Notes: generated by a model not told the origin, from the letters alone. Counted from the first letter of the stretch, positions 5,616-32,000 are shown. The stretch: 32,000 nucleotides of DNA from Ureaplasma parvum serovar 3 str. ATCC 27815 (GCF_000019345.1 NC_010503.1:90001-122000); one strand, 5' to 3'. Numbers and translations are program-made.

Positions 5616-6755
5616 ATGGAAGTTTTTATTTCTATAAAAAAATTAATTGAAGCAATAAAATTTAGTACAACAATTGCTAATACAAACAATGCAAATGCTT
5701 TATTATTAGGTGTTTTGATTGAAGTTAGTCAAAATAAAATTAGTTTTAAGACGACAAATAATCAAGTGAGTGGTTATAAAGAAATTACTGAAGGATTTGA
5801 ATATTTTAATAGTGGAAAAGTTTTAGTTACAGCTAAGATTATTTTAGGATTAATTTCTAAGCTTAAAGATAAATCTGTTTTATTAAAACAAATTGACACA
5901 AATATTTTATTAATTAAAACTGAAAATTTTGAAACTCAAATTAATACAATGAATATTGAAGGCTTTCCTAATTTAAACTTTAGTTTAGAAGATTACGTTA
6001 AAATCAGTTTGCCGCATCAAATTATGCAAGAGATTAATACAAAGGTTTTACCCAACGTTTTGAACAGTCAAGGAATTGAAAAAATTCAACCGATTTCTGG
6101 AATTTTGATTGATACTCAAACTTTAGAAAATAAGTTGATTGCTATTGGTACAGATAAAATTAAAGCTTCATGTTTAATAAGAGAATATATGGGTGAAAAA
6201 TTTAAATTTATTGTCTCTTATTCAACAATGAAATTGATTATCGAAATCCTTAAAAATGTTGAATATAGTAATAATCAAACTGTTGATTTTTATGTTCGAA
6301 GTAGAAGTTTAATTTTTAAAATTAATGATGCAATTTTACAAACAAGAATGATTGATGGTGTTTATCCAAATATTTACTCAATTTTTGATGAAACAAATGA
6401 AGAAAATACATATGTTTTTGATCGTCGTTTATTGATAGAAATTATTGAACGGGGTATGAATATTGTTATGCAAGAACAAAACCCTAAAATTAGTATTAGA
6501 ATAGACAAAAATGAAGCAGAAATCAGTTTAACAACTTTTGAAATTGGTAATATGAAAGAAAAAATGTCAATAGTTAATTTAAACAATAAAAGTGCTGAGT
6601 TTATTTTAAACCCTAGTTTGCTAGCTCATGTTTTAAAAAATTTTGATAACAACGATGTAACTTTTAAAGTTAAAGATGAAATTTTAAGACCTATTATTTT
6701 TATCGATACCAAAGATGTTGGATTTAAACAGATTTTATCAAGAATAAAAAATTAA
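5616..6755 (+). CDS. dnaN: DNA polymerase III beta subunit (sliding clamp)
   Basis: Intact 379-aa ORF with a GAGGA SD about 10 nt upstream. Its length, N-terminal 'I..L..AI' pattern and position upstream of yaaA-gyrB-gyrA fit dnaN. The sequence is divergent, so the call rests partly on synteny. Confidence 0.85.
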   Translation: MEVFISIKKLIEAIKFSTTIANTNNANALLLGVLIEVSQNKISFKTTNNQVSGYKEITEGFEYFNSGKVLVTAKIILGLISKLKDKSVLLKQIDTNILLIKTENFETQINTMNIEGFPNLNFSLEDYVKISLPHQIMQEINTKVLPNVLNSQGIEKIQPISGILIDTQTLENKLIAIGTDKIKASCLIREYMGEKFKFIVSYSTMKLIIEILKNVEYSNNQTVDFYVRSRSLIFKINDAILQTRMIDGVYPNIYSIFDETNEENTYVFDRRLLIEIIERGMNIVMQEQNPKISIRIDKNEAEISLTTFEIGNMKEKMSIVNLNNKSAEFILNPSLLAHVLKNFDNNDVTFKVKDEILRPIIFIDTKDVGFKQILSRIKN

Positions 6756-6892: not shown

Positions 6893-9075
<2,183 letters not shown>

Positions 9076-15787: not shown

Positions 15788-17581
15788 ATGAGCGAATCAA
15801 CATTGTACCGTAAATATCGGCCACATAAATTTAAAAATGTAATAGGTCAAGATTTAATTAAACAAGCATTAATGAATGCTTGTTTAAACAACAAAATTAC
15901 ACATGCTTATATTTTTAGTGGACCACGAGGAATTGGAAAAACATCAATAGCTAGAATTTTTGCGTCTAGTATTAATTGTTTAAATCCTAATAAAGGTGAT
16001 TGTTGCGGCAAATGTAGTGTTTGTGAAAGTATTCTCAAAGAACAAAGTGTTGATTTGATTGAATTAGATGCTGCTAGTAATAATGGTGTTGATCAAATAC
16101 GTATTATTACTGATAATATAAATTATTTACCAACATTTTTTAAGTATAAAGTCTATATTATTGATGAAGCACATATGCTATCTACATCAGCATGAAATGC
16201 TTTATTAAAAACAGTTGAAGAACCACCACAACACGTTATTTTTATTTTTGCAACAACAGAGTACCAAAAAATTCCCTTAACAATTATTAGTCGTTGCCAA
16301 CGTTATGATTTTAAGCGTTTAAATAACAGTGAATTACAAGAATTAATAGACTCTATCCTTACAAAAGAAGATATCAAAATTGATAATAATGCAATTGATA
16401 AATTAATTCAATTAGCTGATGGATCTGGGCGTGATTGTTTAAGCATTTTAGATCAATTAACAACGGTTAAAAAAAATATAGATCTTGATTTAATAAATAA
16501 AACTTTTGGTTTAGTTGACAACTTTAAAGTAATTTCTTTAATCGAATTAATTCAAAAAAACGACATTTTATTATTGCGTGAATTTATTTATGAATTATAC
16601 AATCAAGGTGTTAATTTAGAAGCTTTTTGTGTGCAAATAATAAATGTTTTAATTGATTATTTAATTTATTTAAAAACAAACGATATAAATAATCTTAAAA
16701 AAGTATCAGTTGATGAATTAAAAAAAATGTTATTAATTAATTTTAATGGTAATTATTTGTTAAATAATTTTATTTCTTTATTTAATAATTTAAAAAAATC
16801 ATTAAATCAAGTTTTTGAATTTGAAATTTATTTATATAAAATAATCAATGCTAATAATGATAAATTAGAAAATAAAAAAATAGAATTGTCAATTAACCCT
16901 GAAGAAAATAAAATTAATAATTCCCAAATAATAACGACAAAAAAAATCGATTGTTTTGAAGAAATAAATAAAAATACTGTTGATTTTGATAAGTTATACA
17001 AAACAAAAATTTTTTATCACAAAAAAATTAACAACCAGAATGATAAAGAATCAGGTATTAATCAAAAAGAAGAATTAAGTACAGAATTAGTTAATGATAA
17101 TAAATTGATTTGCAATTCTAATGATATATTAGATAATTATGAACTAGCCAAACAAGCTTTTTTTAATAAAGACATTAAACTTTCAAAAGAAATGAGTCAA
17201 AAATTTAAAGATTTTAAAAATGAAGAAACCATTGAAAATAGTTATATTGATATTATTAAACAAGCTGATTTAGTACTTTGGTGCTCACCTAATGCACTAG
17301 TTTTAGGAGTAGAGTTTTTAGGATTAATTAATCGTATCAATAAAGTTACGCATTCATTTGAATTTATTAAAGAATTTGTTAAGAAATTTGATTCTATCAA
17401 GTTAGTTATTGCTATTAGCAAAAAACAAGCATTAAATATTATTAATATTAAAAAACAAGGTTTAAAAACTAATATAATTAATGATGTTTTAATTGATGAT
17501 ATTAAAATGTTATTAAAACAAGAAGAACAACGAAAACAAGAACAAACAGCGTTATTAAATGAAATTGAAGATGAGGAGTAA
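15788..17581 (+). CDS. dnaX: DNA polymerase III subunit gamma/tau
   Basis: Track ORFs 15788..16195 and 16574..17581 share one frame, with one TGA at 16193 and the gap verified free of TAA/TAG. It has the Walker A 'GPRGIGKTS', the Zn-module 'CGKCSVCESI', the Walker B 'YIIDEAHMLS' and 'SRCQRYDF'. The protein is 597 aa. Confidence 0.93.
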
Positions 17582-17588
17582 AATTTAA

Positions 17589-17888
17589 ATGGACTTTCAA
17601 AAACTTGCACAAGAATTAAAAAAAATGCAAAACACTTTAAGTAAAAAACAAAAAGAATTTGAAGAAAAAGTGTTTGATTTTGATTATAAAGGATATGTAC
17701 TTGTTAAAATCAAAGGTGATTTAAATATTGAAGCAATTGAAATAAAAACAGAAATAGTGGATCCTGAAGACAAAGAAACATTACAAGATATTTTACGTGC
17801 AGCGATCAATGAAGCAATCTCTATAACATGTAAAGAACGAGATGCGATTATGAATGCTACAATCCCTAAAGGAACAGGTCTTTTTTAG
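17589..17888 (+). CDS. ybaB: nucleoid-associated protein YbaB/EbfC
   Basis: Intact 99-aa ORF. The 'LKKMQ...' N-terminus and its position between dnaX and recR follow the conserved operon order. Confidence 0.9.
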   Translation: MDFQKLAQELKKMQNTLSKKQKEFEEKVFDFDYKGYVLVKIKGDLNIEAIEIKTEIVDPEDKETLQDILRAAINEAISITCKERDAIMNATIPKGTGLF

Positions 17889-17896
17889 AATTAATT

Positions 17897-18502
17897 ATGA
17901 GTAAACCAGTAGAATTTGAAATGCTTGTTGATGCACTTAAATCATTACCTGGTGTAGGAACAAAAAATGCTAATAAATGAGCATTTTTTTTGTTACAACA
18001 AGATCAAAAATACATTGATGATCTTATTAAAAGAATTAAAGAAGCAAAAACAAATATTTTAAAATGTAAGTATTGTGCTAATTTTACAAATAAAGACGAA
18101 TGCGATATTTGTTTAAATGAATATCGTGATTTTACTAAATTAATGATTGTTACCACAAACGAGGATTTAGAAAGAATCGAATCAGCTAACATTTATAATG
18201 GCCTATATCATATTACAAATGGTGAAATCTCTTTAAGGAAAAACGTTGTTATTGAACATACAAACATTAAGACTATTAAAGAGCGTGTTTTAAATGGTAG
18301 TTTTAAAGAAATAATTATTGCTACAAGTTATACCCATGATGGGGAAGTTACGGCTGATTATATTATAAGAATGCTTGAAGACATTAAAGATTTACAAATT
18401 TATCGTATTGGCTTTGGTATTCCTTTAAATTCAAGCATTGATTATGCAGATGATGAAACTTTAAAGCAGTCTCTTATTAATAAACGGAAAATAAGAAATT
18501 AA
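17897..18502 (+). CDS. recR: recombination protein RecR
   Basis: The ATG at 17897 is followed by the HhH 'LKSLPGVGTKNANKWAFF' (W encoded by TGA), the C4 zinc finger 'CKYCANFTNKDECDIC' and a Toprim region. It joins track ORF 17990..18502 in frame. The protein is 201 aa. Confidence 0.93.
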
Positions 18503-18568
18503 TTTTTTATTTTAAAACAATCTTTAATTATTCATTTTAAATGGGGGTTATAATAATTGTATAATTAT

Positions 18569-18575
18569 AAGGAGG
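18569..18575 (+). promoter_or_regulatory. canonical Shine-Dalgarno (AAGGAGG) for the small repeat-protein gene
   Basis: AAGGAGG lies 8 nt upstream of the ATG at 18584. Two TATAAT hexamers (18549-18554 and 18560-18565) lie just upstream. Confidence 0.55.
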
Positions 18576-18583
18576 TTAAACAT

Positions 18584-18826
18584 ATGGGTTACGGTAAAGG
18601 ATACTTAGCAATGTTTAAAAACAAGAAAGTAAGATTTAAGGTTGTAAATAGCTTTCCTGATCTAAAGGTTCAATTTGTTACATCATTTCCTGATTACAAA
18701 GTAAAGATTTCAAATTCATCTTCTTTTTGTGAGGAAACTATTAAAATTCAAGTTGTTACTAGCTTTCCTGATGTAAAATTACAAAAAGTTACATCATTCG
18801 GTGATTTTGAAGCTTATATTGACTAA
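18584..18826 (+). CDS. hypothetical 80-aa protein made of SFPD-x-KV repeats
   Basis: I prefer the ATG at 18584, which has a perfect SD, over the track's TTG at 18557. The protein is 'MGYGKGYLAMFKNKKVRFKVVNSFPDLKVQFVTSFPDYKVKISNSSSFCEETIKIQVVTSFPDVKLQKVTSFGDFEAYID'. That gives about five 11-residue units of the form V-x-S-F-P-D-x-K-V. I do not recognise it as a characterised family. Confidence 0.6.
   Translation: MGYGKGYLAMFKNKKVRFKVVNSFPDLKVQFVTSFPDYKVKISNSSSFCEETIKIQVVTSFPDVKLQKVTSFGDFEAYID
18641..18817 (+). repeat. internal duplication within the small ORF (two ~66-nt double units, 111 nt apart)
   Basis: Segments 18641-18706 and 18752-18817 align without gaps. By eye they are roughly three-quarters identical, sharing 'agctttcctgat' and 'gttacatcatt'. 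Each encodes two SFPD-type units. Confidence 0.7.
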
Positions 18827-18859
18827 GAACTAGATAATAAAAAATTTTTATTTTTTGAT

Positions 18860-18889
18860 TGAGCTGGTGGTATGCTGGCTCATTTTTTT
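18860..18889 (+). terminator. intrinsic terminator/attenuator-like hairpin between the small ORF and the nuclease gene
   Basis: The stem pairs 18860-18867 with 18875-18882 ('tgagctgg' with 'ctggctca'), giving 8 bp including 2 G-U pairs. The loop is 7 nt and a run of 7 T follows at 18883-18889. The track's ATG at 18872 sits inside the loop. Confidence 0.5.
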
Positions 18890-18922
18890 AATATATTTAA
18901 TTTGAGAAGAGGCGAGTTAATT

Positions 18923-20626
18923 ATGGCTAATGAGTATTATAATATGTGTGCCTTAGATGCACTCAAATTTGTGAAAAATAGAAATATGTTATTACCAGAT
19001 ATTCAAAGAGAATATGTTTGGGATACAACTGATATAGAAAAATTATTTGAATCTATAGTTGATGATTATCCAGTGGGTTCTTGTATATTTTGGAAAACAA
19101 ATAAAAAAGTACTTAATGATGAAAAACCAAATCTTTATTATTTTATTTCTAAATATAAGCAAGGCGTAACTAAAAATGAAAAAGCACCAGAATTTGTATC
19201 TGATGAAACAGATTATTATATAGTATTAGATGGACAACAAAGAATTACATCTCTTAATATTGCATTGTTTGGATCGTTTACATCTAAGAAAAAAGGTAAA
19301 GGATATAGTGTAAAAAATTCTAAATCATGGGTAGAACGAGAACTATATTATAATTTATCTTTTTACGACAGCAATGAATTGGATGATGAAAATCCCATTA
19401 AAAGATTTGTATTTTTGTCTGAAGAAGAAGCAAAGAATGGTAATTATTATAAAGTTAAGCAAATAGTTAAAAGTGATAACTTAACTGATTATGTTGATAC
19501 AATATCGAATTTTAATAAAAATGTAAAAACGGATTTAATGTGTTTGTATAGAAGAATTATGGAAGCGTCTGCCACTAGTGTAATTCATTATTATTGCATT
19601 GCAGAGAATACATATGATGAAGCACTAGATATTTTTGTTAGAGTAAATTCTACTGGAAGAAAACTATCAAAGTCCGATTTATTATTTTCTACATTAATTG
19701 ATGGTTGGAAAGAAGGGAAGGAAAATATAGACACCTTATTGTCTGACTTAAATTCAGCTGGAGATGGATTTTCTTTTACAAGAGATTATTTAATGCGATT
19801 GGCTTTGGTATTAGTTGATGCAAATACTAATTTAAAAATTGATTCGTTAACTTCTAAAACAATAAAGGAAATCAGGGATAACTGGCAAAAAATAAAGAAA
19901 GCGCTAGAAAAATTATCTGAATTATTAGTTTCAATTGGCATGTGTGACGAAAATATGACCTCATATAATGCAACCATTCCACTGGCATATTATTTTTACA
20001 AAGGTGGCAAAATTGATACAGCAGAATCAAAAAAAGAAGCAAGAAAGTTCCTAGCCGTTTCAATGTCAAAAGGACTGTTTGGTGTAGCAAGTAATGATTC
20101 TTTGAATCAAAGCAGAACTGCTCTTAAGTCAGTAAATGAAAAAACTCCATTTTCATTAACTTTATTTAGTAGTATTACTTTAACGGGTAATAGAACATTT
20201 ACTGCATCGAAAGATGATATTGAATATTGGTTGACGAAGTTTGAAAAAGGAAAAAACACATTCATAATTCTTTCTTTGCTTTATCCTAATTTAAAGTTAA
20301 GCCAAGTTGAGTTCCATCAGGATCACTGTCACCCTTATACTTCATTTGATGATAAAAACATTAAAAAATTAGGATTGACAGAAGATAAAATAAAAGAATG
20401 GCAGTTTAAAAGAAATTTAATTCCTAATTTGCAGTTTTTGGCAGGTAAGGAAAATGAGTCAAAAAATAAAAGGCCTTTATCAAATTGGGTTAAAGATGGA
20501 AATACCTTTGAATATAGACCAGAAAATGTTTCTCTTGAATTATCCAATTTTGATAAATTTTTTAATGAAAGAAAATCCCTTATAAAAAATAAGCTTTTGG
20601 ATATTTTTGGTTTAAAAGCAAACTAA
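18923..20626 (+). CDS. DUF262 + DUF1524 (His-Me/HNH-type) nuclease, GmrSD/BrxU-like type IV restriction-family protein
   Basis: This is an uninterrupted ORF. The N-terminal DUF262 motifs are 'LLPDIQREYVW' (19001-19021), 'YPVGSCIFW', 'VLDGQQRITSL' (DGQQR at 19229-19243) and 'VNSTGRKLSKSDLLFS'. The C-terminal DUF1524-type motifs are 'HQDHCHP' (20315-20335) and 'NLIPNLQFLAGKENESKNK'. I prefer the ATG at 18923, which is downstream of the hairpin and preceded by GAGG-containing sequence, giving 567 aa. Confidence 0.85.
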   Translation: MANEYYNMCALDALKFVKNRNMLLPDIQREYVWDTTDIEKLFESIVDDYPVGSCIFWKTNKKVLNDEKPNLYYFISKYKQGVTKNEKAPEFVSDETDYYIVLDGQQRITSLNIALFGSFTSKKKGKGYSVKNSKSWVERELYYNLSFYDSNELDDENPIKRFVFLSEEEAKNGNYYKVKQIVKSDNLTDYVDTISNFNKNVKTDLMCLYRRIMEASATSVIHYYCIAENTYDEALDIFVRVNSTGRKLSKSDLLFSTLIDGWKEGKENIDTLLSDLNSAGDGFSFTRDYLMRLALVLVDANTNLKIDSLTSKTIKEIRDNWQKIKKALEKLSELLVSIGMCDENMTSYNATIPLAYYFYKGGKIDTAESKKEARKFLAVSMSKGLFGVASNDSLNQSRTALKSVNEKTPFSLTLFSSITLTGNRTFTASKDDIEYWLTKFEKGKNTFIILSLLYPNLKLSQVEFHQDHCHPYTSFDDKNIKKLGLTEDKIKEWQFKRNLIPNLQFLAGKENESKNKRPLSNWVKDGNTFEYRPENVSLELSNFDKFFNERKSLIKNKLLDIFGLKAN

Positions 20627-20853
20627 AAATAAATAAATGTATAAAAATCTAGATTTTACTCAGTTCTAAATAAATTAATTTCTGTATGAAGTGGAATTAC
20701 ATGGTTTTTTTGCTTGAATATTGTAAATATTCGTATGCTTTGATATAGTATTAATGCAAGCCAATGTGTATAGTGCTTTGCAGTACCTATGACCGATTAA
20801 TGGTGGAGTGGTGCAAAAAAAATTATTTTTCTCTGATCTCAAAGGGTTGATGA

Positions 20854-20931
20854 AAGGAGGAACTTATTATGTCATCAAACAAAGTAGAAAGATTCGACTT
20901 GTTTAAGAACATAACATTATCATTTTGATAA
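20854..20931 (+). other. orphan strong SD (AAGGAGG) plus 20-codon micro-ORF, possibly the 5' remnant of a lost gene
   Basis: AAGGAGG at 20854-20860 lies 8 nt upstream of the ATG at 20869. The ORF reads 'MSSNKVERFDLFKNITLSF' and then TGA-TAA (20926-20931). A 7-bp inverted repeat, 'ttgatga' and 'tcatcaa', brackets the SD and start codon. Confidence 0.2.
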
Positions 20932-21241
20932 ATTAATATTTTGTTTAAGAATAGATAACATTTTAAATTCTTAGTTCTAATTCGTTAATCTTTTTCTAAT
21001 TTAAGAATTTTTATTTATAGATTTGTTTTTTTTAACTCATTGGTTATTTTAATTAATTCATTAATACTATAAATTAGAAACATTTTATTTTGATTAGAAG
21101 CATTTTGAATTTAAACTTTATATCTATAATACAAATTTTGTGTTTTTTATAATTTTATAAATTTCTTATTAAGAAATACAAAGATTAAATAATATAATTA
21201 ATGATTAGTACAATAATTTTTAAAATATAAAGAGGTAATTG

Positions 21242-22588
21242 ATGTTCAAAGCAATGATAGGTAGTATTGTAAGTAAACAAATGTCAAAAAAATTAAAAAA
21301 TGCGACAATTGTTGAAGAAGATATTAAAGAATTATTAAGCGAGATAAGAATAGCATTATTAGATGCTGACGTTAATTTATTAGTTGTTAAAAAATTTATT
21401 AAAAACATCAAAGAAAAAACAATTGGATTGTATGTTGAAGCAAACCAAAAGCCAGCAGATCTTGTTTTAAAAATAATTAAAGATGAATTAGTTGAAATTT
21501 TAGGAAAAGAAAATAAGCCAGTTAACACAGCTAAATCACAATTAAAAATTATGATGGTTGGTTTACAAGGTTCAGGTAAAACAACAACTACTGGTAAATT
21601 AGCTAATTATTTTAAAAATAAATACAATAAAAAACCATTATTAGTGGCGGCTGATATCTATCGTCCAGCGGCGATTGATCAATTAAGAACATTAGCAAAA
21701 CAAGTTCGTGTAGATTTTTGAGAAGAAGGAACACAACGCCCTGATTTAATTGTAAAAAATGCTTTAAACAAAGCTGATGAAAATGAAAATAATTTGATAA
21801 TTGTTGATACAGCTGGACGTTTACAAACAAACGAAGAGTTAATGCAAGAATTAGTAAATGTTAAAAAAACACTAAATCCTGATGAGGTTTTTTTAGTTGT
21901 TGATGCTATGGCAGGCCAAGACATTATTAACGTTGCTACAGAATTCAATAATTGATTAAAATTAACAGGTATTATTGTTACTAAATTAGATTCAGATGCA
22001 CGTGCTGGAGCTGTTTTATCATTAACATCGTTATTAAATATACCAATTAAATTCACAGGTACTGGTGAAAAAATAGGATCAATTGATAGTTTCTATCCAG
22101 AACGAATGGCTGATCGAATTTTAGGTCTTGGTGATATCATGACTTTAGCAGAGAAAGCAGCTGATGTTATTGATGAAAAACAAGTTCGTGGTTCGATGCA
22201 ACGAATGATGGCAGGAAAAATGGATTTAGAAGATTTAATGCGTCAAATGAGTCAAATTAGTAAATTAGGTAGTTTTTCAGGAATAGCTAAGATGATTCCT
22301 GGATTGAACAATATTTCTGAAAACCAAATTGGTGATGCTGAGAGCAAAATGAAAATATGAACAATTTTATTATCAAGTATGACTTTAAAAGAACGTCGTG
22401 ATCCGCGCGTTTTTAAAAAAGAACCATCAAGACGCATACGGGTTTTAAAAGGATCAGGACGTTCGCCTGATGAATTAAATAAGTTATTAAAACAGTGGGA
22501 AGTGTCACGTGATAAAATGGCAGAACTTGGTAAAATGTTACAAAAAGGAAAAAATCCTTTTAGTAAATCTGGTGGGTTATTTAGTTAA
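21242..22588 (+). CDS. ffh: signal recognition particle protein Ffh
   Basis: Track fragments 21239..21721, 22106..22360 and 22379..22588 join in one frame through 3 TGA codons, with the gaps verified. The GTPase motifs are 'GLQGSGKTTT', 'DTAGRL' and 'TKLDSDARAG'. It has a Met-rich M domain. The ATG at 21242 has an AGAGG SD. The protein is 448 aa. Confidence 0.95.
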
Positions 22589-30187: not shown

Positions 30188-32000
30188 TTAACCACGGAAT
30201 TTTTCAAAATATTCGAGTAATTTTTCAGTAGCATTTTCTTTTATTTTAGACCTATTACTATTCTGATTACTTTTTTTAAAAAAAGAGGTAGGAGGCATTA
30301 AATTAACAATATCTACTCCATTTTCATTAAATTCATTATTTTCAAATGCTTTTTTCATAAATTCAAATGTTTTTTTGTTATCTAATTTATTTTCATTAAT
30401 TATTTTTATAAGCTCACTTTCTTTTTTATTTTTAATAAACTTACTCCATTCATTAAAAATATCAATTTCATCCTTATTAGGTAGTTTATTAATTTCATTA
30501 ACAAATTCAATAATTAAATCTTTCTTTTTTCGCGCTTTTAGACTAGATAAAATATCTCTTTCTAGATCGTGATATTTAACTTCTTTTAGATCTTTTTTGA
30601 GCTTTTCATTCATTAACTTAAGAATATAATCAACACCAATATCTTGTTGACTAATTAATTCAATTTTAAAATCAAGATCACTAACAATGCTATCTGTTTC
30701 CATACGTTTTTTATCTTGATATTTATCACGCAACCCGATATATATACTTTGATAATCTTGCATTTCTGTACCAATAAGATCATCGTTTTGTTCAAATTCA
30801 CTAAATTGTGAAAGCAAATTTTTATATTTTAAAATATCACCAAAAAGTTTAATAAAAATTCTTTCCTCTTCTTTTGTTCCATTAAAAGGAATTTTAAAGT
30901 TACTTTTTAATTCTTCTACTAAGTTTCGATAACCTTGTATATATTGATTATCTTCATTATAATATCCTTCATAATATTCTTTAAATGATCTTAAAATAGC
31001 GATCGAAGAATTAATATTGCTCTCTGATGAAAATAATCTTAAAGCTTCATTCACTTCATCTTCTAAATTTATGAAAAAGACAATATTACCATTTGATTTA
31101 ACACCATTAAGAATTCGATTGGTTCGCGACATTGCTTGAATTAAACTATGATATTTTAGTTTTTTGTCCAATCATAATGTATTTAAAGTTGTTGCATCAA
31201 AACCTGTTAAAAACATATTAACAACGATTGCTATATCTAAGCTTCGATCCTTTAATCTCAAGCTAAAGTCTTTATAGTAATTATTAAAATTAGCATTATC
31301 TGTTGAGTATGATGTCCCAAACATTTCATTATAATCTTTAATCGCTTCATCAAGAAAATTACGTGAATCTAAATCAAGTTGATTAGTGTTTTCGTTATTC
31401 TCATCTAATAGTTCAAAATTAGAAAGTTCATTATCATTACTTTCTTGTTCGCTTGGTAAATAACTATAAATTAATCCAATTTTTAATTTTTCTTCTTGAG
31501 GAAATTTTTGTTGTTGTTTTTTAAATTCTGAATAATATATTTTAGCTGCATTAATAGAAGAGCAAGCTAGAATAGAATTAAATCCATTTAGTGTTGTTAA
31601 TACTTTATTTTCGCTTAATTTATTTCTGCTAGTAATAACTTCATTTATATTAGCAATCTTATTATGTTCAAAAAATTCTTCATTTCTTTTGGTTAAACGA
31701 TTATAGTTTTTTAAAATAAAATCAACAATTTCAGAAATACGAATCGGATTTTCCAAAGCTTCTTTTTTATCTATTCCAGTTGATGATGTTTCATCGTCAA
31801 TGTCATCTTTTTCGCTAAGTGTTTTATAATACTCCGTTCTAAAACCTAAAACATTACCATCACGAATAGCTTTATCAATTGTATATTTATGTAAACAAGC
31901 TCCAAAAAGATGCTCTGTTGTAAAGAAAATATTTTTATTTTTGACATTACTATTTTCTTCTAAAATAGGTGTGCCTGTAAACCCAAAAATCATATATTTT
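30188..32000 (-). CDS. hsdR: type I restriction enzyme R subunit (C-terminal ~600 aa; 5' end beyond window)
   Basis: Track ORFs 31172..31993 and 30188..31171 form one frame joined by the TGA at 31172-31174, reading 'TLNTLWLDKKLKYHSLIQAMSRTNR'. It has the helicase motifs 'FGFTGTPI' and 'QAMSRTNR', followed by a long helical C-terminal region. The frame stays open to the window edge. Confidence 0.9.

Follow-up and report, generated by a model that had tools for sequence, protein, structure and literature searches.

The 7-1-knotted protein Septknot is encoded beside single-protein defence nucleases of several families, including a BrxU-type nuclease in a strain-variable cassette of Ureaplasma parvum

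We analyzed a 32,000-nucleotide (nt) stretch of the chromosome of Ureaplasma parvum serovar 3 strain ATCC 27815 (NC_010503.1, 90001–122000), which is called the window here and in whose numbering all positions are given unless a contig is named. Between recR and ffh it carries a cassette of two genes, the first for Septknot, an 80-amino-acid (aa) protein folded as a 7-1-knotted beta-barrel, and the second, UU090, for a restriction nuclease of the BrxU/GmrSD type. What is new here is that the clade to which this Septknot belongs is recurrently linked to single-protein defence nucleases across families, its partners spanning six PADLOC families (HEC-05/BrxU, PD-T4-3/CMoRE, PvuRts1I-like mREase, Uzume, PDC-S26 and PDC-S11). 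On balance we favour reading the cassette as a mini defence island composed of a known nuclease and a probably generic, undescribed accessory gene. In the literature searched, no paper linked Septknot with these nucleases, and the terms "Septknot" and "PF19647" occurred in none. The elements of the cassette are as follows.

18543–20968, strain-variable insertion of 2,426 bp between recR and ffh, the proposed mini defence island, with breakpoints set by alignment
18536–18565, plus strand, promoter-like site TTTAAA-18-TATAAT from a consensus scan (10/12 positions; a pattern match only)
18569–18575, plus strand, AAGGAGG Shine-Dalgarno sequence of the Septknot gene, read from the sequence
18584–18826, plus strand, Septknot gene (UU089.1 / Q9PR55), 80 aa, 7-1-knotted beta-barrel by identity to a solved structure
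18860–18889, plus strand, terminator-like hairpin and T-run between the Septknot and nuclease genes
18923–20626, plus strand, UU090, Type IV restriction nuclease of the BrxU/GmrSD type (PADLOC HEC-05) by profile and sequence matches, 567 aa
18971–19696, plus strand, DUF262/GmrSD_N domain, residues 17–258 (Pfam PF03235, 2.9e-34)
20312–20335, plus strand, His-Me finger core FHQDHCHP of the DUF1524-type nuclease domain, which aligns with FHVDHIYP of BrxU

The small protein was 100% identical over its 80 aa to residues 10–89 of PDB 8IWA chain A (E = 1.5e-49), so the uncharacterised repeat protein of the first-pass annotation turned out to be the 7-1 knot. Among protein knots it is both the smallest and the most complex; the protein is monomeric and resistant to urea and ClpXP, and the work on 8IWA was structural and biophysical, with no function or genomic context reported (PMC10840475). 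Five units of the V-x-S-F-P-D-x-K-V type were counted (SFPD in three, SFGD in one and one degenerate), and the SFPD-type motif was conserved across the homologue alignments. The deposited 89-aa model starts at TTG 18557. Because the close homologues all start at ATG 18584 and the AAGGAGG at 18569–18575 falls inside the deposited model, the native Septknot is probably 80 aa long and the deposited model probably begins nine codons too early. The nine extra residues coincide with the N-terminal stretch that the structural work describes as disordered (PMC10840475), and nucleotide homology among Septknot loci begins about 30 nt 5' of the ATG, with the Shine-Dalgarno sequence included.

A total of 549 Septknot homologues were found, and precomputed family tables gave PF19647 (Pfam "Septknot", formerly DUF6150) for 120/120 among the matches listed. 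A local Pfam hmmscan of the window protein did not report PF19647, its sole match being a weak BA_2335-like one (0.0025); this miss probably reflects a difference in library version or threshold. A family profile search of 1.8 billion representatives returned 1,255 members, most of them 100–145 aa long with a signal peptide and some with tandem duplications; the longer ones were secreted tandem duplications or had unannotated extensions, and one had a Tudor/SH3-like domain. The clade of the window protein consists of cytosolic 80-aa proteins of 60–86% identity from gut and rumen Firmicutes, Fusobacterium and some Bacteroidota. Its ratio of nonsynonymous to synonymous substitution (dN/dS) was 0.07–0.12 with synonymous sites saturated, and its isoelectric points were 9.2–9.6 (9.3 for the window protein). 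Septknot was also considered as a phage anti-defence gene and rejected as such, with just 2 distant matches in 2.9 M viral contigs (IMG/VR).

UU090 matched PADLOC HEC-05 (PDLC04151) at 8.7e-150, with residues 11–563 on positions 29–594 of the 600-position profile, and BrxU (PDB 7P9K) at 3.9e-59, with residues 16–523 on 14–530. It has the DUF262 motifs IQREYVW, DGQQR (19229–19243) and NSTGRKLSKSDL; IQREYVW, DGQQR and FVRVNSTG align to the QR, DGQQR and FxxxN motifs of BrxU, and NLIPNLQFL aligns with NKLPNLQLL. The Pfam DUF1524 model gave no match to UU090 at E<=1, and the catalytic motifs were all intact when compared with BrxU. HEC-05 is the PADLOC name of BrxU, a GmrSD-like Type IV enzyme that acts alone to degrade modified-cytosine DNA and in which DHIYP is catalytic and the DGQQR and DH..P motifs are needed for defence (10.1101/2024.01.29.577857). 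The HEC-05, 7P9K and GmrSD_N matches bear out the GmrSD/BrxU architecture proposed earlier for the large protein. Membership of UU090 in the BrxU/GmrSD family is well supported by these alignments, UU090 is thus a further member of a known nuclease family, and by its homology with BrxU it would restrict modified-cytosine DNA.

A first test of linkage, in which the nuclease was searched by tblastn against 80 genome loci, found none outside Ureaplasma, and this negative was misleading because 68 of the 80 loci held the distant secreted Septknot subfamily. Linkage was then re-tested with a metagenome scan using the close-clade Septknot alignment and with direct look-ups, and these revealed at least five further loci in which an HEC-05 nuclease follows Septknot on the same strand. 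Loci and contigs from the searches carry L numbers, and identities in the next lines are to the window proteins.

L105/L195–198, Septknot 84% and nuclease 63% identical, with a 117-nt spacer containing a hairpin and T-run
L191–194 (Solobacterium), Septknot 80% and nuclease 64% identical, at another chromosomal site
L104, Septknot 84% and nuclease 30% identical, with a 5-nt gap (HEC-05, 3e-203)
L138, Septknot 71% and nuclease 29% identical

The order of Septknot and then HEC-05 was therefore retained though the nucleases can be only 29–30% identical, and a convergent nuclease fragment lay beside Septknot in L110. The conserved linkage to DUF262 nucleases that had been put forward for the small gene was found in these four sets of loci, where Septknot stands directly upstream of HEC-05. 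However, the partnership was not specific to DUF262/DUF1524 enzymes, as had been supposed. When the immediate neighbours of the close Septknot clade were annotated with Pfam and PADLOC, Septknot was seen to accompany five other nuclease families, listed here with one recurrent unannotated neighbour.

Upstream of Septknot in L085, L112 and L006/7/109/140, PDDEXK_4 nuclease, PADLOC PDC-S26 (1.8e-20 to 3.9e-57)
Upstream in L108 and L124 and downstream in L129, PvuRts1I-like_N plus SRA nuclease, PADLOC mREase_II (1.3e-51; Pfam 6e-22)
Upstream in L008, LEM-3-like GIY-YIG nuclease, PADLOC PD-T4-3 (1.1e-59)
Downstream in L005, L009 and L087–92, GIY-YIG nuclease, PADLOC UzuA (5e-47, 7e-37, 1e-37)
Upstream in L093–96 and L121/122 (Fusobacterium), NucS/EVE-like nuclease, PADLOC PDC-S11 (2e-23)
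Upstream with a 4-nt gap in L010/11, L113–120 and L123, unannotated 195-aa protein

The PvuRts1I family depends on modified cytosine. PD-T4-3 is CMoRE, a Type IV enzyme dependent on 5-hydroxymethylcytosine (5hmC) or glucosylated 5hmC (5ghmC) (PMC12923530). In 42 dereplicated loci of close Septknot homologues, nuclease-family genes accounted for 23/64 adjacent open reading frames (ORFs) versus 1/255 non-adjacent ORFs, and the lone non-adjacent match was the second half of a split adjacent gene. This count does show that nucleases occupy the adjacent position only. In the clade of at least about 69% identity (together with one 63% locus, L140), a nuclease was adjacent in about 24 of 27 informative contexts, and the contexts without a nuclease clustered in the 59–67% clade. 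The nucleases beside the cytosolic clade, which evolves very slowly, either are modification-dependent restriction enzymes or resemble them. All partners but one were on the strand of Septknot, gene order was mostly fixed within each nuclease family, and the gap between Septknot and its neighbour was just 4–5 nt in L104 and L010. Partner type did not track the tree of the 80-aa Septknots, a tree that is itself poorly resolved.

Several other genes recur around Septknot. The gene for the 195-aa protein (L010 7409–7996) ends 4 nt ahead of Septknot in more than nine loci, inserted upstream of ruvC; the idea that its product (L010/L115) is a DUF1524 nuclease was dropped, since hhalign gave its FHDEHMIP and the window's FHQDHCHP a probability of 1.4% and no Pfam or PADLOC match was obtained. 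A lipoprotein-like gene of 128–146 aa, whose product has a signal peptide and a Cys and is without Pfam or PADLOC match, lies directly 3' of Septknot in seven loci (L085 6322–6708, L108 4586–5026, L112 6266–6706, L086, L109, L111 and L140), with either a PDC-S26 or a PvuRts1I-like nuclease upstream, and may be a third recurrent component. WYL-domain regulators recur within one to three genes of Septknot (L007 8850–10662, L125 6391–7275, L085 3827–4831, L093 8048–8941), which suggests that these regions are defence islands; in L007 the regulator is followed by a 311-aa restriction-endonuclease-like protein.

The window is Mollicute chromosome with 25% G+C and TGA read as Trp. The end of recR (18502), the start of ffh (21242), both ORFs (80 aa at 18584–18826, 567 aa at 18923–20626) and the repeats of the small protein were all confirmed, and the DUF262 motifs, the His-Me motif, the hairpin, both AAGGAGG sites and the Trp-codon contrast described in the first-pass annotation were all present. 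Public assemblies were searched with the exact YbaB protein of the window and 24 Ureaplasma contigs were examined; the cassette was present in about 19 of them and the site was empty in about 5. In the empty-site allele L186 the recR–ffh gap is just 340 nt and neither cassette gene is there. L186 and the window are 99.5% identical on both flanks, and in the alignment identity stops at 18542 and homology resumes at 20969; the insert had been placed at 18540–20935, close to these breakpoints. A direct repeat flanks the insertion.

18533–18542, plus strand, left 10-bp direct repeat CATTTTAAAT at the breakpoint, a target-site duplication or microhomology
20959–20968, plus strand, right 10-bp direct repeat CATTTTAAAT at the breakpoint

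Apart from these two copies, CATTTTAAAT is absent from the 32-kb window, and the copies coincide exactly with the two breakpoints; the empty site has one copy, TATTTTAAAT. The cassette at 18543–20968 thus entered in one event at the 10-bp repeat, with duplication or microhomology, and we read it as horizontally acquired. The promoter-like site at 18536–18565 spans the left junction. Trp codons also set the insert apart: the nuclease has 8 TGG and 0 TGA, versus 5 TGG and 45 TGA in the other 20 genes of the window, and TGG-only coding fits relatives in gut Firmicutes and Bacteroidota. The hairpin between the two genes (18860–18882, followed by T7) had a folding energy of −11.3 kcal/mol with z = −3.3, terminator-like sites numbered 2 against 0.6 expected, and one analogous intergenic hairpin with a T-run also lies 3' of Septknot in L195. 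Because of this terminator-like hairpin, Septknot and the nuclease are, as read from the sequence, transcribed separately, both in the window and in L195.

Most of the insert has a close counterpart in Metamycoplasma hominis, as the following features show.

18900–20899, plus strand, block near-identical to M. hominis (blastn, contigs L097–L101; 98.55% nucleotide identity)
20854–20931, plus strand, AAGGAGG (20854–20860) and a 20-aa stub ORF (MSSNKVERFD...), remnant 5' end of a donor gene
20897–20916, plus strand, TTGTTTAAGAACATAACATT at the right edge of the block shared with M. hominis

Within the block lie the nuclease gene, the spacer behind it and the opening 10 codons of the gene that comes next in the donor; the block starts 23 nt 5' of the nuclease ATG, just past the hairpin, and ends 273 nt past the stop codon. 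UU090 shares a 90% cluster with M. hominis proteins of 97–98% aa identity, and the contigs L001–L004 of U. parvum encode a nuclease identical to that of the window. The next-closest nucleases were 79% identical in L102, where an IS66 element lies alongside, and 70% identical in L103, a sporulating Firmicute, followed by hundreds more at 61–66% from gut Firmicutes and Bacteroidota. The foreign origin that had been proposed for the cassette is therefore upheld by the empty site, the flanking repeat, the TGG-only Trp codons and the near-identity to M. hominis. UU090 was not mentioned in published lists of gene transfer between M. hominis and U. parvum, and neither UU090 nor UU089 was mentioned in the M. 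hominis or 19-Ureaplasma genome papers.

The stub ORF itself runs from 20869 to 20931 (20 aa; MSSNKVERFDLFKNITLSFW), with homology to M. hominis stopping at 20899, and its full-length version is the 324-aa gene 3' of the nuclease in M. hominis (L097 7950–8924). The second AAGGAGG, formerly counted as part of the module, thus belongs to the 5' stub of the donor's next gene. The 0.6-kb tail behind the nuclease had been assigned to the insert as a whole and is only partly so, being donor spacer, gene stub and native upstream region of ffh: 20627–20899 is donor DNA common to the window and M. hominis, and 20969–21241 is native and somewhat diverged. A non-coding RNA in this tail was looked for and rejected, as an E-value search of 20600–21260 turned up only SraB, which scored 24 bits where the cutoff is 130, a chance match; across the whole window Rfam gave 0 matches at the gathering threshold. 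The 324-aa and 142-aa downstream genes of M. hominis were considered as parts of a known system and were without Pfam or PADLOC family match, and L102 has a 31-aa remnant of the 142-aa gene 3' of its nuclease, ahead of the IS66 element. In M. hominis, TTGTTTAAGAACATAACATT (19–20 nt with one mismatch) adjoins the nuclease block on the left (L097 ~5955–5977). The sequence TTGTTTAAGAACA(A/T)AACATT stands at the right end of the shared block in the window, with a degenerate copy at ~20943–20964, and the empty site in L186 (~8072–8086) holds a similar ATTTGTTCAAAACAG. The TTGTTTAAGAACA repeat may be a recombination site or the sign of a circularly permuted intermediate.

If the cassette is a mini defence island, its parts could work as follows. 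The N-terminal DUF262 domain of UU090 (QR, DGQQR, FxxxN) would, by homology with BrxU, bind and hydrolyse nucleotide and so gate the enzyme, and the C-terminal DUF1524 His-Me finger (FHQDHCHP...N) would cut incoming modified-cytosine DNA. Septknot would be a generic accessory factor of modification-dependent restriction acting on a target common to all the systems, whether the DNA substrate, the chromosome of the host or a countermeasure that phages share; it would improve or tune defence and be dispensable for viability of the nuclease, and it would not be a fold-specific inhibitor, antitoxin or nuclease subunit. A fold-specific inhibitor or subunit is unlikely because one nearly invariant protein joins six unrelated folds. 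An immunity or antitoxin role and strict dependence are argued against by the terminator, the nucleases that lack Septknot, a Septknot nonsense allele (Q56*) and the stand-alone activity of BrxU and CMoRE. The Septknot gene is equipped with its own promoter-like site, a perfect Shine-Dalgarno sequence and a terminator-like hairpin. We put forward only tentatively, as a possibility that we do not expect to hold in full, that the cytosolic Septknots are a portable, near-universal cofactor, co-inherited with single-protein nucleases of at least six unrelated folds and required for these to work fully or to be used safely; that they act on DNA or chromatin as the substrate, or on a countermeasure that phages have in common, belongs to the same claim and is equally tentative.

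A number of observations weigh against an accessory role of this kind. The role is proposed from gene linkage, and the adjacency test is partly circular, as it was from these same neighbours that the nuclease families were defined. About 15–19 of the 42 loci had no recognised nuclease neighbour, some of them on short contigs, and true non-nuclease contexts exist (aldose epimerase, AraC regulator, membrane proteins). PDC-S26 and PDC-S11 are computational candidates only, and BrxU/HEC-05, PD-T4-3 and the PvuRts1I family are reported to act as single proteins (10.1101/2024.01.29.577857, PMC12923530). No Septknot–nuclease fusion was found among the 1,255 family representatives, and the wider family is mostly secreted, which indicates a fold without an intrinsic DNA link. 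The nuclease locus of M. hominis has no Septknot gene, its nuclease being placed after uvrB and a 281-aa gene; L190 has a nuclease without Septknot, and a Septknot was not found in L102 either, where the contig breaks off within the gene ahead of the nuclease. In L188 (Logan ERR13393061) a C-to-T change at the equivalent of window position 18749 turns Gln56 of Septknot into a stop while the nuclease is intact. The hairpin that divides the two genes in the window and in L195 counts on the same side; together with the Septknot-less nucleases of M. hominis and L190, the nonsense allele and the stand-alone action of BrxU it argues against obligate pairing of the two genes, and the two-gene module that had first been proposed is partly supported.

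The chief alternative takes Septknot to be an independent neighbour with a role of its own, in defence or elsewhere, and no functional tie to the nuclease, the adjacency having arisen as mobile and defence genes piled up in variable hot spots. That the gene has its own promoter-like site, Shine-Dalgarno sequence and terminator, that M. hominis shares the nuclease block without Septknot, that partner type departs from the Septknot tree and that the partner families function alone in experiments would all fit, as would the WYL regulators, recombinases, insertion sequence (IS) elements and other candidate defence genes nearby. But a mere accumulation does not readily account for a nuclease that is directly adjacent, on the same strand in nearly all cases and always single-protein, the adjacent partner never being a methyltransferase, an abortive infection (Abi) gene, a toxin-antitoxin (TA) pair, CBASS or another multi-gene system. 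The order is mostly fixed per nuclease family, for HEC-05 down to 29–30% identity, and the 4–5 nt gaps in L104 and L010 suggest co-translation units. Single-protein exclusivity and the retained HEC-05 order weigh against independent neighbourhood, which we regard as unlikely, though well worth keeping in mind.

Much less probable is that Septknot is an immunity protein or antitoxin that binds and restrains the nuclease, shielding the host until infection, a role the first-pass annotation had offered for the small protein. A small protein encoded beside a potentially self-toxic nuclease, the recurrent pairing and the existence of small GmrSD protein inhibitors such as IPI* of phage T4 make the idea attractive. 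Yet such a role would require a near-invariant protein of 80 aa to block enzymes of six unrelated folds, namely His-Me, GIY-YIG (two families), PD-(D/E)xK (two families) and PvuRts1I-like; M. hominis and L190 keep the nuclease without it; and the Q56* allele of L188 stands alongside an intact nuclease, which speaks against an immunity factor. The terminator between the genes does not fit a tight co-transcribed operon, and Septknot is hyperstable and not labile (PMC10840475).

We give still less credit to the view that the nucleases are selfish, homing-endonuclease-like genes that repeatedly insert beside Septknot as a landing pad. GIY-YIG, HNH/His-Me and PD-(D/E)xK are classic free-standing homing endonuclease families, the Uzume-like partners gave weak PADLOC "HEase" matches (1.5e-4, 8.7e-4), the nuclease block moves independently of Septknot, and partner type is shuffled relative to Septknot phylogeny. 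The partners nevertheless match validated defence nucleases better by 30–50 orders of magnitude, the saturated synonymous sites of Septknot argue against a conserved nucleotide target, and the insertion in U. parvum brought both genes at once with a single pair of flanking repeats. Least credible of all, a decayed and non-functional leftover of a larger element whose genes are not under selection in Ureaplasma would explain the truncated donor stub 3' of the nuclease, the absence of the cassette from some strains and the nonsense allele, but not that both ORFs are intact in 18/19 insert-bearing Ureaplasma contigs, that all catalytic motifs of the nuclease are intact and that the nuclease is identical in L001–L004 and 97–98% identical to the M. 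hominis copies.

Compared with known systems, UU090 has the same layout of DUF262, helical linker and DUF1524 His-Me finger as BrxU of Escherichia fergusonii pEFER (PDB 7P9K), and the RLFDS nucleotide-binding motif of BrxU reads KLFES in UU090 (10.1101/2024.01.29.577857). BrxU sits in a BREX island and acts alone, whereas UU090 lies in a Mollicute between housekeeping genes, behind Septknot. GmrSD (Eco94GmrSD/EcoCT) and SspE share the pair of DUF262 and DUF1524 and the logic of a modification-sensing nuclease, but they are far more distant from UU090 (SspE model, 3e-5), and the known small-protein partner of GmrSD is the phage inhibitor IPI*, not a host gene. TgvAB of the Vibrio cholerae island VPI-2 is a two-protein system in which a GmrSD-type nuclease depends on, or is accompanied by, a second gene, which shows that "single-gene" is not universal in the GmrSD family; however, TgvA is a DUF262 protein and Septknot is an unrelated 80-aa knotted beta-barrel with no DUF262 match in Pfam or PADLOC. 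PD-T4-3/CMoRE, the PvuRts1I family and Uzume are single-protein phage-defence nucleases of the same functional class as BrxU, but they have unrelated nuclease folds and the window encodes none of them.

The genes that surround the cassette in the window are as follows.

Ahead of dnaX, dnaN–gyrB–gyrA and then recA and rny
15788–17581, dnaX
17589–17888, ybaB
17897–18502, recR
21242–22588, ffh

Farther downstream, 30188–31993 on the minus strand encodes part of the R subunit of a Type I restriction enzyme, its C-terminal two-thirds, and the gene continues past the window end; its product matched T1R_D3-like (3.8e-53) and EcoR124_C (7e-49), which places a second restriction locus at a distance of about 9 kb. 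Among the genes listed as exchanged with M. hominis is the type I cluster UU095–UU100 of U. parvum (PMC2751442).

With the linkage, a function can for the first time be proposed for the 7-1 knot Q9PR55 in a form open to testing. Both cassette genes are TGA-free and so directly expressible in E. coli. If the generic cofactor reading were true, it would provide the first biological role of a 7-1 knot and a new class of fold-independent defence co-factor. Each of BrxU, CMoRE, the PvuRts1I-like enzymes and Uzume is regarded as a system of one gene, and an accessory gene common to them would change how they are catalogued and tested. In Ureaplasma the cassette may be a strain-variable restriction barrier, which would bear on the transformability of Ureaplasma and M. 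hominis, and the exchange of its nuclease with M. hominis adds a case to the known gene flow between these two urogenital Mollicutes.

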